Below are positions 23,077-63,890 of a DNA stretch of 64,000 nucleotides, piece after piece. Source of the stretch: an uncultured Clostridia bacterium (GTDB lineage: Bacteria; Bacillota; Clostridia; Oscillospirales; Ruminococcaceae); the NCBI GenBank assembly GCA_944382885.1, contig CALWNT010000012.1, positions 10,784 to 74,783 of the forward strand. The letters run 5' to 3'. Within the stretch, counting starts at the first letter, position 1, and each line of letters opens with the position of its first letter. The notes under the pieces were generated by a model. The model ran no database searches. It was not told the DNA's origin and was given only the letters and a program-made list of their open reading frames with translations. The translations under genes and the position numbers were made by a program.

Positions 23077-24228
23077 ATGTATCAGCGGTTACATGATTAT
23101 CTTAAAAATTTATCCAAAGAACTAGTGGAAGGATGCCGCACCAAGGCATATGACGGAACCTGGCTTTATACTCCGGACGGGATTTCCAGCTATAATGCCC
23201 TTTGGCTGAGGGATTTTTCCTATATGGTGGAATATGCCGGCTTTGCGATCCCCTGTGAAGAAATCGAGGGCTGTATCCGCTATGCGATTCAGCACCGCCG
23301 TGAGGACGGATGGATGCCTGACCGGGCCTGCGGGGACGGCACAGGGATATACGCCGCAGGGGAGGCTGGACATCCGATTGGAGAAGCCAATCTGGATAAC
23401 ACCCCTTTTCTGGTCTATACCGTTTATGACCTGTCTCAAAGAATGGATGGAGCGGAATTCGCCCCCAAATGGCGGGAGTGGGAGCCTTATCTTACCGCTG
23501 GGCTGAAATTGATTCCGTTGAGTGAAAACGGTTTGGTGTATAATGACCCGGAACGGCTTCATTCTCCCTACGGCTTTACCGATACCGTTGCCAAAAGCGG
23601 AGAGCTTTATATGGAATCGCTGCTGTTTTGGAGAGCGTGCAGATTGATGGCCCAGATGAGCCGGACCTATGGCGGCGGGGATCTGTTCTGGTATGAAGGC
23701 TGTGCTTCGGCGGTGGAACAAAAGATCAATCGTTTGAAAGATGACAGAACAGGTACTTATTTCGCAGCCACCGGTGATTGCAAACAACTGGATATCTGGG
23801 GAATCGCCTACATGCTTTATATCGGCTTTCCGGTCTCGGAAGAGGGAAAGCGAAGCATACTGTCTTTTTTGAAAGACCATTATGATGAATATATGTACTG
23901 CGGGCAGGTAAGGCATCTGCTCAAAGGGGAGTATTGGCAGGCGCTTCTCATAGATGTAGCGCCTGAAACCTATCAAAACGGGGCCTATTGGGCTACTGCG
24001 ACGGGATGGGTAATTTGGTGCCTGGCCCAATGGGCGCCTGAACTGGCAGTCCGCGCTTTAACGGAGGTAACGGCATATTTTCAGAAGGAAGGTTCCTTTG
24101 AATGTGTCAATGAAGGATATCAGAAGCTGCCGAGTTTTGTGGTAAGCGCGACAAATGTGTACGGCGGCTTGGAAAAATCTTCCGCCATTTCAGCCTTTCG
24201 AGCTTTGTTAGACCAAAAAGGCGAATAA
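23077..24228 (+). CDS. (alpha/alpha)6-barrel glycoside-hydrolase-like protein, family unknown
   Basis: ORF trimmed to ATG 23077, behind AAAGGAGGAG. The ALWLRDFSYMV W-x-RD-type motif is common in six-hairpin glycosidases. Weak call. Confidence 0.4.
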   Translation: MYQRLHDYLKNLSKELVEGCRTKAYDGTWLYTPDGISSYNALWLRDFSYMVEYAGFAIPCEEIEGCIRYAIQHRREDGWMPDRACGDGTGIYAAGEAGHPIGEANLDNTPFLVYTVYDLSQRMDGAEFAPKWREWEPYLTAGLKLIPLSENGLVYNDPERLHSPYGFTDTVAKSGELYMESLLFWRACRLMAQMSRTYGGGDLFWYEGCASAVEQKINRLKDDRTGTYFAATGDCKQLDIWGIAYMLYIGFPVSEEGKRSILSFLKDHYDEYMYCGQVRHLLKGEYWQALLIDVAPETYQNGAYWATATGWVIWCLAQWAPELAVRALTEVTAYFQKEGSFECVNEGYQKLPSFVVSATNVYGGLEKSSAISAFRALLDQKGE

Positions 24229-24244
24229 AAAACCGCAGTTTTAG

Positions 24245-24288
24245 AAAGACCTGCATGGAAAGACTCTCTTTCCGTGCAGGTCTTTTTG
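24245..24288. terminator. long hairpin terminator between convergent genes
   Basis: aaagacctgca.ggaaag / ctttcc.tgcaggtcttt, about 17 bp plus one G-U, followed by TTTTT. Confidence 0.7.
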
Positions 24289-24306
24289 AAGCTGTGTGCA
24301 AACCCG

Positions 24307-44472: not shown

Positions 44473-45597
44473 ATGACGTTTCGTGAAAATGTAATGGCGA
44501 TCCTTCACTATGAAAAATACGATCATTTTCCGGTGGTGTCCTTCGGTTATTGGAATGAGACTCTGGAAAAATGGGCGGCAGAGGGCCATATTACCCAAGA
44601 AGAAGCAGACGGTTATGCCAAACAGGGAGACAACTCTCCGGCGGACAATTCCGTTATGAAAAGACTGGGCTTTGACTTTAACTGGAATTCCTGCCTTGGA
44701 ACGGCAAACCAGCTTTTTCCGGCCTTTGAAAAACAGATTTTGGAAGAAAAATCGGACGGAAGCCGAATCGTTCGGGATGAACAGGGATTGATCGTGCTGG
44801 AAAAACCTGGCGTTGTCTCTATCCCGGCGGAGATCGGCACCTCCTTGATGGACAGAAAGTCCTGGGAAGAATTATATCTGCCCAAATTACAGTGGGATGA
44901 AAAACGAGTAGATACTGATTACTTTAAAACCCTTTCTTCCTTGGAAGGACGGGAAATTCCCATTGGACTTCACTGTGGTTCCCTTATCGGTTATATGAGA
45001 AATCTTCTTGGAGTAGAGCAGCTGAGCTATCTCTATGCGGATGACGAAGAGCTTTATGTGGAGATTATTGACACGATAGCCGGTTTGGCATATCGCTGTG
45101 TGGAAAAGGTACTGGAGACCGGCGCAAAATTTGATTATGCTCATTTCTGGGAGGATATCTGCTTTAAAAACGGCCCGCTGGTTTCTCCTTATGTGTTTGA
45201 GGATTATGTGGCGCCCCACTACAAAAAGATTACGGACCTGCTCAAGAAAAATGGGATCGACATTGTGTCGGTAGACTGCGACGGATGGATCGACAGGCTG
45301 GTGCCGATCTGGCTGAACAACGGTGTCAATACCATGTTCCCGATTGAAGTTGGCACCTGGAATGCCAGCATCGCTCCTTGGAGAGAACAGTACGGCAAAG
45401 AGCTCAGAGGCGTGGGCGGCATGAACAAAACTGTTTTTGCCCGGGATTATCAGGCCATTGACGAAGAAATTGAACGTTTGAAGCCGCTGATCGAGTTAGG
45501 TGGGTATATCCCTTGTCCGGACCACCGTATTGCTCCTGACGCAAAATTTGAAAATGTGCAGTATTACTGCGATAAGATGCAGAACTTGAAGATGTAA
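44473..45597 (+). CDS. uroporphyrinogen decarboxylase (URO-D)-family protein
   Basis: 374 aa. Resembles the URO-D-like/MtaA-like proteins common in Clostridia. Family-level call only. Confidence 0.55.
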   Translation: MTFRENVMAILHYEKYDHFPVVSFGYWNETLEKWAAEGHITQEEADGYAKQGDNSPADNSVMKRLGFDFNWNSCLGTANQLFPAFEKQILEEKSDGSRIVRDEQGLIVLEKPGVVSIPAEIGTSLMDRKSWEELYLPKLQWDEKRVDTDYFKTLSSLEGREIPIGLHCGSLIGYMRNLLGVEQLSYLYADDEELYVEIIDTIAGLAYRCVEKVLETGAKFDYAHFWEDICFKNGPLVSPYVFEDYVAPHYKKITDLLKKNGIDIVSVDCDGWIDRLVPIWLNNGVNTMFPIEVGTWNASIAPWREQYGKELRGVGGMNKTVFARDYQAIDEEIERLKPLIELGGYIPCPDHRIAPDAKFENVQYYCDKMQNLKM

Positions 45598-45629
45598 AAA
45601 AAGAGGCGGGCCTAGCCCGCCTCTTTTTT
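45596..45629. terminator. bidirectional intrinsic terminator
   Basis: An A-run, then an agaggcggg / cccgcctct stem, then a T6 run. Confidence 0.75.
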
Positions 45630-45642
45630 ATGAGGGTATTAG

Positions 45643-46076
45643 AGTAAATAGAAATTTATCTTTCTGTTTCAAAGCGATTTTACCCGATCACTTTCTTTCA
45701 GAGAAAGAAGAAAGCACCTGGGAGCACCGGCTCCCAGACCCCGGCACCTTTTGCTTGTCCAAAAGGTGGAAAGGACCCTGCTCAAGCGCCGCGGAGGCTT
45801 TGGTACGGGTCTTTGAAGTGTTCTCCTAACCATATCAACAAGGAAAAATTCAGTCTATCGCTCGGGCTGGAGGATGTTTTGGCAGAAGCTGATATTTTCC
45901 GTTGTACTCTGTTAGAAGGCAACTTTTAAGACCTATCTCAAGCCTTTCCGGCGTTTGAGGAATGCCCTTTTGGTTTCTTTTGGGCAAGCAACAGAAGCTC
46001 GGGGTATGGGGGCCGACTGCCCCCATAAGCTAAGTTCAGAACCGGCTAGGTTCTATACGATAAATTTCTGTTTGTT
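45643..46076 (+). ncRNA. candidate large structured RNA (about 430 nt), or alternatively a MITE-like element
   Basis: ORF-free region. Closing helix 45650-45660/46059-46069 (11 perfect bp, 18 bp with G-U pairs), a stacked second helix, and at least 8 local hairpins. All wobble positions favour the + strand. No match by eye to RNase P, tmRNA or SRP motifs. Confidence 0.35.
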
Positions 46077-46189
46077 GTATTTAGCACTTCCTTTTTAAAT
46101 TAAGAAAATCTTTCGTTTTTTCTCCGGAAAATCTCTTGCTGAAAGGACTATACTGAAATCAGTTATTTATCAGGAAGGGATTTTCGAAC

Positions 46190-47056
46190 ATGAAACACAA
46201 AAAGAAAAAAAGAATCGTTTGGGGGATCAGCCTGTTCCTTTTAGTCTGTGTGATAGGAGGATGTGCAGGAATCCTGCGCTTTTTTCCTGACGCAGTATAT
46301 GGTTTTTCTCAGATGATGGAAAAACGGCAGCAGGCAGAACTGCAAGAGATATCCGTTGAGACGGACGCCATTCCAACAGCACAGTTGAGCAGCCAATCTA
46401 CAGAAGACGTACCGATTCTCACTCTGATTGATCCGGAGCATCCGGTTCCTTCCGACAGTGCGCCATGCGTCCCCTTTCGGGATACTGAGCTTTTGCTTCG
46501 GGAAGAAGTGATCCCCTCTTTAGAACGATTGCTTTCTGACGCAAAGGAGCAAACCGGGGAAAAACTTTTGATTATGAGTTCTTATCGTACGAGTGAGGAA
46601 CAGCAAGAACTGTACGAAGAAGACCCTTCTACTGCCAGTCGGCCGGGAAGCAGTGAACATGAAAGCGGGCTGGCTTTGGATCTTTATGTTTATCAATATG
46701 CTGGAAAGAATTTTATTAAAACGGACGCCGGAAGATGGGTGAATGAGCATTGTCAGGATTACGGTTTTGTGATTCGCTATCCCTTCGGGAAAAAATCAGT
46801 GACCGGATTTTCTTATGAGCGCTGGCATATTCGATATGTTGGAACTCCCCATGCGGAAATTATGTATCAAAATCATTGGACGCTGGAGGAGTATCTAAAA
46901 CAGCTGACGCCCGGAGTATTTTATCAGTATGAAGATTACCTCATCAGCCGACAGCAAGAAGCAGACGGATGTCTGCAAATCCCCAAAGATTCTACCAATG
47001 TCTGTGTTGGTTCGGATAATACCGGATTTTATGTGGTTACCGCGCAAATGATCTAA
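46190..47056 (+). CDS. D-alanyl-D-alanine carboxypeptidase, VanY/peptidase M15B family
   Basis: N-terminal TM anchor. SEHESGLALD and ERWHIRYVG zinc-ligand motifs. Confidence 0.8.
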   Translation: MKHKKKKRIVWGISLFLLVCVIGGCAGILRFFPDAVYGFSQMMEKRQQAELQEISVETDAIPTAQLSSQSTEDVPILTLIDPEHPVPSDSAPCVPFRDTELLLREEVIPSLERLLSDAKEQTGEKLLIMSSYRTSEEQQELYEEDPSTASRPGSSEHESGLALDLYVYQYAGKNFIKTDAGRWVNEHCQDYGFVIRYPFGKKSVTGFSYERWHIRYVGTPHAEIMYQNHWTLEEYLKQLTPGVFYQYEDYLISRQQEADGCLQIPKDSTNVCVGSDNTGFYVVTAQMI

Positions 47057-61288: not shown

Positions 61289-62386
61289 GTGGGATTTACA
61301 CTGGGCAACATTGATAATGATGATGTAAACATAAAGGTAATCGGTGTCGGCGGCGCCGGTGGGAATGCGGTGAACCGTATGGTGGCCTGTAATGTGCAGA
61401 ATGTGGAGTTTATCGCAATCAATACCGATCAGCCGGTACTGGACCTGTCTCAGGCGACTTATAAGATCAGAATCGGAGACAAACTGACTAAGGGCAGAGG
61501 CGCCGGAGGAAACCCGGAAATGGGGGCTAAGGCTGCCGAAGAAAGCCGGGAAGAAATTGAGAGTGCGTTAAAAGGCACTCAGATGATTTTTATCGCTGCC
61601 GGAATGGGCGGCGGCACTGGAACCGGAGCAGCTCCTGTGGTTGCGGAAATCGCAAAGGATCTGGGTATTCTGACGGTTGGTATTGTTACCAAGCCCTTTA
61701 CCTTTGAGGGGAAGAAAAGAATGCTCAATGCGGAAAAAGGACTGGAAGAGCTGGGCTCTAAAGTGGATTCTCTGATTGTCATTCCAAATGAGCGTTTGAA
61801 ACTCATTACGGATAAATTCCGTACCATGAAAGATGCTTTTGCGGCCGCTGACGACGTACTCCGTCAGGGTGTGCAGAGTATTTCTGACCTGATTAAAATG
61901 CCGGGGTTTGTAAACCTCGACTTCGCGGATGTCTGTGCCGTCATGAAGGAAGCCGGTTATGCTCACATGGGCGTGGGAACCGGTACTGGAAAGGACAAGG
62001 CTCACGAAGCGGCTACCGCTGCGATTTCCAGCCCGCTTTTGGAAACTACCATCGATGGGGCTAAGGGTATTATCATCAATATTACGGCGCCTTCCGATTT
62101 GGGCTTTGACGAGGCGGAAATTGCATCTTCTATCATTGCAGATGCGGCGCACCCGGACGCCAATATTTTCTGGGGTCTTGCTTTTGACGATACCTTGGAA
62201 GATGAGATGCGGATTACGGTAATCGCCACCAATTTTGCCGATAAAGAAGCAGAAGAAGCGAAAAAGGCAGAAGAAGAGGCTCAGAAAGCGAAGCAAGAAG
62301 CTGAAGCCGCGCAAAAACCCAGCGCAGTCGATTTGGATTTTGACGATATCATGGCCATCTTTAATGGAAATGGTAATCGGAAATAA
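61289..62386 (+). CDS. ftsZ: cell division protein FtsZ
   Basis: [13 protein letters not shown] and [13 protein letters not shown] tubulin signatures. GTG start 7 nt after GGAGGA. Confidence 0.95.
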
Positions 62387-62438
62387 GGCAGCAGTACATA
62401 ACTTTTGCTTTGTATTCTGAAAATGCTCTAAAATAGTT

Positions 62439-62471
62439 CAGCGGCAGGCTTTTTGAGCCTGCCGCTGTTTT
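62439..62471 (+). terminator. intrinsic terminator of ftsZ
   Basis: cagcggcaggct / agcctgccgctg 12-bp stem, followed by TTTT. Confidence 0.75.
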
Positions 62472-62530
62472 GGTCTGCCGGTTTTTCTGATAATTGGAAA
62501 GACGGGAGTCTGATGTGGAAAAATTGAATC

Positions 62531-62562
62531 AAAGAAAAGAGGGCCTGATTTTCAGGCCCTCT
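62531..62562 (-). terminator. intrinsic terminator of the GH4 gene
   Basis: agagggcctg / caggccctct stem. On the - strand it is followed by cttttcttt. Confidence 0.7.
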
Positions 62563-62567
62563 GTGTT

Positions 62568-63890
62568 TTATTTGTAATCTTTCATATAGTCTCCGTGGGC
62601 TTCGATGAGATCGTCGCACATTTTGACAATATCGTCTGTAGACAATTCAGCAGCTGTGTGGGGATCTAACATCGCAGCCTGATAAATGCTTTCCCGCTTT
62701 TTCGTCACGGCGGCTTCGATGGTCATCAGCTGTACATTGATGTTGGTCATATTCAGTCCGGCAAGCTGAACTGGAAGTCTTCCCACGTGGCACGGATTTA
62801 CTCCCATAGCATCCACTAGACAGGGAACCTCTACACAGGCATCCGAAGGCAGGTTGTCGATTAACCCGGTGTTCAGCACGTTTCCGCCAATTTTATAAGG
62901 AGTATTGGTCACCATAGCTTCCATGATGTAAGAAGCGTATTCGTGAGAACGTTCATGTTCGATTTTGCCGTCCTTCAGGATGTTGTTTTTCTCTTCTTCC
63001 CATCCGGCGATCTGGTTGACGCATCTTCTCGGATATTCATCCAAGGGAATATTGAATGCGTCGATCAATTCCGGATAACGGGATTTGATAAACAGCGGAT
63101 TATATTCTGCGTTGTGCTCGCTGGATTCGGTGCAGTAATAGCCAAAACGCTTGATATACTCAAACCGCACCATATCGTTGTGCTTCTCTGACGCATTTTT
63201 TTCCGCGGCGCGTTTTCTGATTTCAGGATAGAGATCATTTCCGTCTTTGTCATAGATTTCCAGCAGCCATCCCATATGGTTGATTCCGGCAATCAATTCT
63301 TTTCTGCCTTCTAGTTTGTCCTCCATTCCAAGACTTTTCAAAAGCCCCTCAGAGCAAACCTGAACACTGTGGCACAGACCGACTGTCTTTACACCGGTAT
63401 ATCTCTGCATATAGCCGCTGAGCATTGCCATCGGGTTGGTATAGTTTAAAAACCATGCGTCCGGGCACACTTCTTCCATATCCTCAGCGAAGTCTTTCAA
63501 TACCGGAATAGTACGCAGCGCCCGCATAATCCCGCCGATGCCCAAGGTGTCGGCAATGGTCTGGCGCAGTCCGTATTTTTTAGGTACTTCAAAGTCGATA
63601 ATCGTACAGGGATCATAGAAACCAACCTGAATCGCGTTTACGACAAAATCAGCCCCTCTCAAGGCATCTTTTCTGTTTTCTACGCCCAGATAGGTTTTGA
63701 TAACTGCCCGATCCTGATTGACATTGTGGTTAATTGCTTTTAAAATGATTTCCGATTCTTTTAAACGCACCTCATCGATATCGTAAAGTGCGATTTCACT
63801 TTCCCGCAGAGCCGGCGTGCACATACAATCTCCCAGTACATTTCTGGCAAATACCGTGCTGCCTGCTCCCATAAAAGTAATTTTTGGCAT
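62568..63890 (-). CDS. melA: GH4-family alpha-galactosidase/alpha-glucosidase
   Basis: NAD-binding N-terminus MPKITFMGAGSTVFARNVLGD, the GLCHSV motif, and 440 aa. Confidence 0.85.
   Translation of the reverse strand: MPKITFMGAGSTVFARNVLGDCMCTPALRESEIALYDIDEVRLKESEIILKAINHNVNQDRAVIKTYLGVENRKDALRGADFVVNAIQVGFYDPCTIIDFEVPKKYGLRQTIADTLGIGGIMRALRTIPVLKDFAEDMEEVCPDAWFLNYTNPMAMLSGYMQRYTGVKTVGLCHSVQVCSEGLLKSLGMEDKLEGRKELIAGINHMGWLLEIYDKDGNDLYPEIRKRAAEKNASEKHNDMVRFEYIKRFGYYCTESSEHNAEYNPLFIKSRYPELIDAFNIPLDEYPRRCVNQIAGWEEEKNNILKDGKIEHERSHEYASYIMEAMVTNTPYKIGGNVLNTGLIDNLPSDACVEVPCLVDAMGVNPCHVGRLPVQLAGLNMTNINVQLMTIEAAVTKKRESIYQAAMLDPHTAAELSTDDIVKMCDDLIEAHGDYMKDYK

Follow-up and report, generated by a model that had tools for sequence, protein, structure and literature searches.

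What occupies the 592-bp spacer between two co-oriented genes of an uncultured Clostridia bacterium, and does it act as RNA, as DNA, or not at all? We addressed this question for positions 45598-46189 of a 64,000-nt stretch of contig CALWNT010000012.1 (assembly GCA_944382885.1; the whole stretch is hereafter the window), where the spacer follows a URO-D-family gene (44473-45597, assigned by a Pfam URO-D match) and precedes a gene for a VanY-type carboxypeptidase (46190-47056), both on the + strand. A sequence-only reading had proposed for it either a large structured RNA of the + strand or an insertion resembling a miniature inverted-repeat transposable element (MITE), and the sequence and coordinates that it described were reproduced here. 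The comparison of related loci demonstrates a palindrome that is conserved, maintains its pairing and differs in its arms from strain to strain. Our preferred interpretation, held tentatively (at a probability of roughly 0.4), is that of a single-locus, lineage-restricted, functional non-coding element, the core of which is probably a long-hairpin RNA of the + strand enclosed in a MITE-like shell.

The segment 45636-46084 reached a folding energy of -190.2 kcal/mol on the + strand (shuffle mean -130.1, z-score -9.2) and of -172.2 kcal/mol on the - strand (z-score -9.1), and ranked as the top folding outlier among all the 450-nt windows tiled over the 64 kb. As both strands fold equally well, we describe the element in the first place as a DNA-level imperfect quasi-palindrome of about 440 bp, closed by inverted repeats of 15-18 nt. 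Further inverted repeats (I6, I10, I2, I1, I3 and I19) are nested round a centre near 45871, and the two arms of the palindrome are about 70-78% complementary. The closing helix already recognised in the sequence is real: its arms (45646-45660 and 46059-46073; 15 nt, 93% complementary) match at 15/16 positions, or at 16/19 when extended, and a search of the 64 kb with the 19-mer GAGTAAAYAGAAATTTATC (which contains the left arm; up to 3 mismatches allowed) returned two sites, namely the two arms, against 0.06 expected.

The interior turned out to be organised differently from what had been supposed. Instead of a multi-helix fold of local hairpins, the minimum-energy form is a single long arm-to-arm rod, made up of these nested repeats (a shape that the conserved centre of 180-200 nt adopts as well), and it leaves unused the helix (45661-45668 with 45990-45997) that was thought to stack on the closing one; in the centroid structure local hairpins compete with the rod in the outer arms only. 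The local hairpins listed earlier do exist (among them 45718-45737, 45745-45768, 46005-46027 and 46038-46054); two in the centre (45771-45778 with 45807-45814, and 45937-45959) are not kept in the homologous locus of a second species (contig L013).

The flanking proteins have their close homologues in uncultured Lachnospiraceae; among relatives that bear a name, a Fusicatenibacter metagenome-assembled genome (MAG) comes nearest (87% protein identity for the URO-D-like gene). Among the 29 related loci compared (L numbers), the contigs with close URO-D-like homologues represent two species: W, which comprises the window and L024 (URO-D-like gene 98.6% identical), and X, which comprises L013 = L014, L015 = L016, L023 and L025 (at least 98% identical mutually and 84% to W). 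All of the W and X contigs carry the upstream terminator and the left terminal repeat (retained as GGAGTAAACAGAAATTTA in species X) at an equal distance from the stop codon. The element is absent 3' of the more distant URO-D homologues (L017-19, L026-29) and 5' of the VanY homologues (L001-L011), and a VanY-protein scan of the genome collection returned nine distant loci, all without it. Considering that the same locus is occupied in two species, the element was, as judged from these contigs, inherited vertically and not recently transposed: it predates the W/X split, stays at one locus and is narrowly distributed.

Comparison of the two species singles out the centre of the palindrome. The window and L013 (which reaches 460 nt inside the element and, like the other species X contigs, stops short of the right half) align in the same orientation over 45781-46004 with 76% identity. 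Within the core (coordinates in Table 1) the identity between W and X amounts to 72% overall, to 80-82% in the arms and to 67.5% in the apical domain, against 46.7% at the four-fold degenerate sites of the adjacent gene (135 sites). Two near-invariant blocks stand out, each of which pairs with a variable partner (block 1 with 45911-45934, block 2 with 45782-45800). Since the identity of the core lies far above that of the four-fold sites and the blocks are nearly invariant, the comparison argues for purifying selection since the W/X split and not for neutral decay.

The substitutions also bear on pairing. The core helices (45782-45830 with 45911-45959) hold 44 mirrored positions; the + strand forms pairs at 39-40 of these, the - strand at 34-35. 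Between the species 11 of the 44 have changed; two have changed on both sides in a compensatory way (A-U to G-C and A-U to U-A), and the pair is kept in six of the nine single-sided changes on the + strand (the other three being disruptive there) and in one of the nine on the - strand. When isolated, the core folds into the same rod in both species (z-score -4.8 in the window and -9.0 in L013). On this comparative evidence + strand pairing of the core appears favoured.

These data bear on whether the palindrome could be neutral and unstable, left behind by inverted duplication and template switching, without function and decaying by drift. Long palindromes are mutational hotspots, the arms of this one are hypervariable between strains, and the G-T excess of the + strand could stem from strand-biased C-to-T mutation; however, a core that keeps 72-82% identity and invariant runs of 19-25 bases next to four-fold sites at 46.7%, double changes of which two out of two are compensatory, and retention of the element at one locus in two species make this the explanation to which we give the least credence.

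The proposal of a structured + strand RNA thus stands as regards the unusual structure, the non-coding nature (see below) and the favoured pairing, yet several points weigh against it. Both strands fold equally well, which would allow the structure to act at the level of DNA. The + strand fold holds 21 G-U pairs and the - strand fold nine (p = 0.04), a trend in the direction of the earlier claim of wobbles that are without exception G-U on the + strand, but p rises to 0.2 once the G+T base composition is allowed for (T exceeds A and G exceeds C in the element). The strand asymmetry of the substitutions is statistically weak (six of seven transitions are pair-preserving on the + strand, p about 0.06), and the core is covered by two sequences only, with little power for covariation. 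With respect to transcription, the + strand lacks a conserved sigma-70-type promoter ahead of the core (window and L013), a strong terminator lies directly upstream of the element, and the sole possible end signal is a T-rich tract that follows the 3' arm of the core (after 45959) on the + strand of both species. Finally, terminal repeats with variable arms are atypical of a dedicated RNA gene, and two species make for a narrow distribution.

A transcript of the opposite strand would be a small RNA that starts at a weak motif (TTG(C/G)CT-17-GAAAAT, 45922 to 45894), runs leftward through the left arm and ends at hairpin B, the end of which has a T-rich tail on the - strand. In its favour the promoter-like motif recurs at the homologous position in L013, and a terminator-like site (45739 to 45716, then GCTTTCTTCT) lies ahead of it; still, the -10 element (GAAAAT) is weak, L013 and L024 lack the terminator tail, and the transcript would hold one arm only, which leaves the arm-to-arm pairing unexplained and sits poorly with the single change in nine that keeps pairing on this strand. 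We therefore regard a minus-strand small RNA as highly improbable.

The description of the spacer as free of open reading frames (ORFs) applies to frames of at least 60 aa, none of which was found in 45598-46189. The same interval contains five ORFs of 38-58 aa, which are not conserved; the homologue L013 has stops in all six frames, and the substitutions between it and the window are distributed over the codon phases as 17/15/12, with no codon-position bias. Six-frame translations produced no match among 5.8 billion proteins at E up to 10 (a search of low power for short ORFs). By these comparisons the element is non-coding.

Nor did it match a catalogued RNA. The scan with all 4227 Rfam models gave no gathering-level match anywhere in the 64 kb (riboswitch, leader and tRNA-type models included), and none of the models for ROOL, GOLLD, OLE, raiA, 6S, RNase P, tmRNA and SRP matched the element, in agreement with the absence of the RNase P and SRP motifs and of tmRNA ends noted from the sequence. 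At E up to 10 the interval 45400-46400 returned only weak matches (at most 27 bits) that are caused by the upstream terminator, and the L013 homologue gave the same terminator-driven noise and nothing else. A literature search found no relevant account. With rod-like or ornate RNAs (6S RNA, Ms1, OLE, ROOL, GOLLD, raiA) the core shares a long hairpin, irregular and about 200 nt in length, with paired ends, internal loops, conserved single-arm blocks, and an intergenic position co-oriented with the neighbours. It departs from them in having no covariance-model match even at E up to 10, no defined promoter or terminator and two strands that fold equally, and in lying inside terminal repeats and hypervariable arms in two species only.

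Several other candidates, judged from the sequence and from the features of the systems concerned, were rejected: a dif/Xer site (there is no gene-orientation switch here), parS (half-site match only), a single-strand origin of the ssoA type (no conserved CS-6 loop), a retron (no reverse transcriptase), a group II intron remnant (no Rfam domain match) and a CsrA sponge (~200 nt hold about 6 GGA motifs where about 3 are expected, and most of them are paired). As far as such comparisons reach, every named family considered seems to fail at least one defining test or stays undecided.

The features that recall mobile DNA lie at the ends. The terminal inverted repeats are flanked by GTATTAG and GTATTTAG, which agree only if a 1-nt indel is admitted, and the repeats together with this putative 7-8-bp duplication probably form a MITE-like shell that records how the element first arrived. 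An explanation that goes further takes the whole for an ancient foldback or MITE-like non-autonomous transposon inserted behind the terminator, with the palindrome a property of the DNA and the conservation due to a DNA-level role (protein binding, cruciform) or to homogenisation of the arms, not to RNA. It accounts for terminal repeats beyond chance, for flanks that could be a duplication, for AT-rich ends, for the equal folding of both strands, for an intergenic safe site 13 nt past the terminator, where the element starts, and for its absence at the distant URO-D and VanY homologues; moreover, the start of module A (TTTCTGTTTC) copies part of the right repeat, which hints at nested end fragments.

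The search for further copies, on the other hand, covered the 64 kb, the 29 related loci and plasmid, phage, viral and JGI collections, and found none. BLAST against plasmids and phages and scans of viral contigs with both conserved blocks gave no match, a JGI metagenome scan with a 19-mer from block 1 gave three chance matches of 19-23 nt (the sample that holds L013 evidently lies outside the scanned collection), and the six-frame search was empty. Neither a related insertion sequence nor a transposase turned up, and an empty site was not encountered either: no relative was found in which URO-D adjoins VanY without the element (L012 and L011 have different neighbours). What is best conserved is moreover the core and not the termini, at 72-82% against a neutral level of 47%. 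The MITE-like insertion proposed from the sequence thus retains its terminal repeats, while no second copy was found in the loci and collections covered and the putative duplication is imperfect; we consider such a transposon unlikely, although deserving of attention.

The comparison with the palindromic repeats and MITEs of bacteria (ERIC/IRU, Correia, BOX, BIME/RIP) is similarly two-sided. They too are non-coding, intergenic, imperfect palindromes with terminal inverted repeats, and a place directly behind a terminator, as here, counts among the likenesses; BOX and ERIC variants have modular hairpins that are inserted in or missing from individual copies, and RIP/BIME units show a conserved centre between inverted hairpins. 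Members of these families measure 100-200 bp, and a genome holds tens to hundreds of them; the element, unlike them, is ~440 bp long, is present as one copy in 64 kb, has no sequence similarity to them and has a centre under clear purifying selection between species. A plain multicopy MITE is not supported, and neither is a classic inverton, to which the arms direct attention.

Short GC-rich hairpins, stacked one after another, make up the outer arms; their positions are kept and their sequences are replaced. Strains whose flanking gene is 98-99% identical differ completely from the inner edge of the left repeat (AAAYAGAAATTTA|) inward. In the window the left arm opens with the 57-nt AT-rich module A, which is followed by hairpin B; in L024, of the same species, module A is missing, the arm consists of D-like, B-like and E-like hairpins, and its identity is ~76% to the inner left arm of L013 and only 70% to the right arm of the window in reverse complement. 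The left arm of L013 extends over about 150 nt with four perfect hairpins of 9-12 bp, and that of L023 has 37 unique nt and then D and C modules (36 nt that match window positions 46019-46054, reverse-complemented, at 92% identity). L025 carries module A in reverse orientation (85% identity over 54 nt), and L015 and L014, with genes 99.4% identical, differ at ~4 places within the 14-15 nt that follow the repeat.

Individual hairpins repeat this picture. Hairpin B has changed three of its eight pairs on both sides, the hairpin at 45745-45768 has its counterparts in GGTACCTTTTTG/CAAAAAGGTACC (L013) and GGTTCCTTTGG/CCAAAGGAACC (L024), and at the position of 45972-45996 L013 reads CTACTTTTG/CAAAAGTAG, with one compensatory change from T-A to A-T. 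Hairpin D recurs in mirrored form, beside the left repeat in L024 as well as in L023, and at an internal place in L013. On the alignments the outer arms are thus seen to turn over very fast, by indels, by module replacement and by at least one module inversion, that of module A between the species being the sole firm case. The four L013 hairpins (2362-2520: GCGC...GCGC, TATGGCGAGGGG/CCCCCCGCCATA, AAATCTCGC/GCGAGATTT and GTTCGATTCG/CGAATCGAAC) have no counterpart in the window, and the gene caller placed a 62-aa ORF across them. We also observed that six independent short-read contigs from different samples (L014, L015, L016, L023, L024 and L025) end at the left repeat or within ~100 nt of it on the inner side; such ends fit strain heterogeneity or assembly trouble and are not evidence by themselves.

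This variability could be read as a non-coding hotspot of site-specific recombination (an inverton or shufflon), where a distant recombinase acts at the AAAYAGAAA-TTTATC repeats and hairpin modules are inverted or exchanged, with an effect on read-through or expression toward VanY-dcw. Such a reading would explain why five different sequences follow one identical breakpoint in strains so similar in the flanking gene, the inverted module A of L025 and the several contigs that end at or just inside the left repeat. It would also suit a site in which the outer half and the spacer are constant and the inner half is variable, a pattern reminiscent of the R64 shufflon with its asymmetric sfx sites, and the left site of the window (AAATAGAAA-TTTATC-TTTCTGTTT) is a 9-6-9 palindrome.

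A whole-element inversion was nevertheless rejected as the explanation of L023 and L024. Symmetry alone would put D and C modules into the left arm of a palindrome, and therefore the two contigs prove no such inversion; besides, the L024 arm, at 70% identity to the reverse-complemented right arm where the flanks are 98.6% identical, is a different allele and not a flipped copy. No recombinase gene lies in the 64 kb (one encoded elsewhere may act), no sigma-70-type promoter facing VanY was detected within the element, the VanY regulatory region lies outside the repeats, and no sample contained both orientations. Known invertons (fimS, C. difficile cwpV/flgB, those of Bacteroides) and the R64 shufflon share with the element a segment of a few hundred bp with short inverted repeats upstream of a cell-envelope gene, strain differences that start exactly at the repeat and one module in both orientations; the element differs from them in the lack of an adjacent recombinase and of an internal promoter, and in variants that are divergent alleles. 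Recombination at the repeats as the whole explanation seems to us improbable.

A combination of the two ideas, which we hold to be about as improbable, would place the conserved ~200-nt rod-like RNA (or a single-stranded hairpin) within a recombination-active shell, as a non-coding shufflon that diversifies an RNA. The AAAYAGAAA-TTTATC repeats would then serve as asymmetric recombinase sites, and each strain would carry its own set of hairpin cassettes beside the invariant core, upstream of the VanY-mraZ-dcw genes.

Under the interpretation that we prefer, that of a functional element with a long-hairpin RNA core, the + strand would be transcribed co-directionally with the flanking genes and the transcript, a long RNA rod, would serve as a double-stranded platform that a protein may bind or cut. 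The two invariant single-arm blocks (25-33 nt) could provide sequence-specific contact sites, the MITE-like shell would be a trace of the original arrival of the element, and the arms would be a mutation or recombination hotspot.

The surroundings are those of a core chromosome. Downstream of the VanY-like gene lie mraZ, mraW and the remainder of the dcw cluster, the 64 kb also contain glycolysis genes and ddl, and none of the 45 ORFs scanned across them is a recombinase or transposase, so that we see no mobile island around the element. The terminator of the URO-D-like gene is retained in L012-L016 and L023-L025 (contig comparison); its GC-rich stem (45597-45629, with an A-run and a T-run on either side) is kept in three species and could be a two-way intrinsic terminator. 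At the other end, the ~95 nt upstream of the VanY-like gene are also conserved before the 67%-identical VanY gene of L011 (528-618), which lacks the element. This region has two direct copies of GAAAATCT 22 nt apart (at 46105 and 46127) and one inverted copy (46178-46185), and from its sequence looks like a regulator-binding promoter region.

Two observations concern other places. In the GC-corrected scan of the window the intervals 62251-62700 and 23851-24300 ranked next as folding outliers (about -3.7 to -3.9 standard deviations), and are probably ordinary terminators since both sit where convergent genes meet. Among the distant homologues, two Fusicatenibacter MAGs with the same URO-D protein (L017, 2753-3837; L018, 2515-3288) differ downstream of it, where one has a HAD-family hydrolase gene and the other a 1085-bp stretch without a called gene, which could be a pseudogene or a frameshift.

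Table 1. Features of the spacer and its borders (window coordinates; a dot marks features given without strand)
Feature	Position	Strand	Sequence or basis
Intrinsic terminator of the upstream URO-D-like gene	45597-45634	+	Perfect 15-bp stem, A-run before, T-run after; inverted repeat I5
Putative target-site duplication, left copy	45636-45642	.	GTATTAG; read from sequence
Left terminal inverted repeat, 5' strand of closing helix	45643-45660	.	AGTAAATAGAAATTTATC; inner edge is the divergence point of all strain variants
AT-rich module A	45661-45717	.	Imperfect end repeats TTTCTGTTTC / GAAAGAAGAAAG; strain comparison
GC-rich hairpin B, left arm	45718-45737	.	CTGGGAGC / GCTCCCAG; position kept, sequence differs in L013 and L024
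Left-arm hairpin	45745-45768	.	CACCTTTTG / CAAAAGGTG; counterparts in L013 and L024
Conserved core, long arm-to-arm hairpin	45782-45959	+	Conservation in L013 and fold
Core lower stem	45782-45800 with 45940-45959		
Core middle stem	45806-45830 with 45911-45934		
Core apical domain	45831-45910		
Near-invariant block 1	45803-45833	+	88% identity; run of 25 identical bases, TACGGGTCTTTGAAGTGTTCTCCTA
Near-invariant block 2	45940-45972	+	AAGCCYTTCCGGCGTTTGAGGAATGYCCTTTTG, then T-rich tract; 94% identity; run of 19 identical bases
Right-arm hairpin	45972-45996	.	TTTCTTTTG / CAACAGAAG; mirror of 45745-45768
GC-rich hairpin C, right arm	46005-46027	.	TATGGGGGC / GCCCCCATA; inverted repeat I10; mirror of hairpin B
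Hairpin D	46038-46054	.	AGAACC / GGTTCT; adjoins right repeat
Right terminal inverted repeat, 3' strand of closing helix	46059-46076	.	GATAAATTTCTGTTTGTT; inverted-repeat search
Putative target-site duplication, right copy	46077-46084	.	GTATTTAG; read from sequence
VanY-like gene regulatory region, outside the element	46096-46189	+	TATACT 46150-46155; GAAAATCT repeats
Repeat sequence, possible recombination site			AAAYAGAAATTTATC
Proposed element search sequence, named beside TACGGGTCTTTGAAGTGTTCTCCTA			TTCCGGCGTTTGAGGAATG

Were the element only an old MITE, its interest would be local. It nevertheless presents an unusual contrast between a selected core and arms that differ, from one exact breakpoint, between strains 98-99% identical, and the locus may as such serve as a natural strain marker and as a test case for the survival and diversification of long bacterial palindromes. 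If the core is a functional long-hairpin RNA, uncultured Lachnospiraceae of the gut or rumen would gain an RNA that is still uncharacterised, one that adjoins the cell-division gene cluster and for which a structural model is ready.

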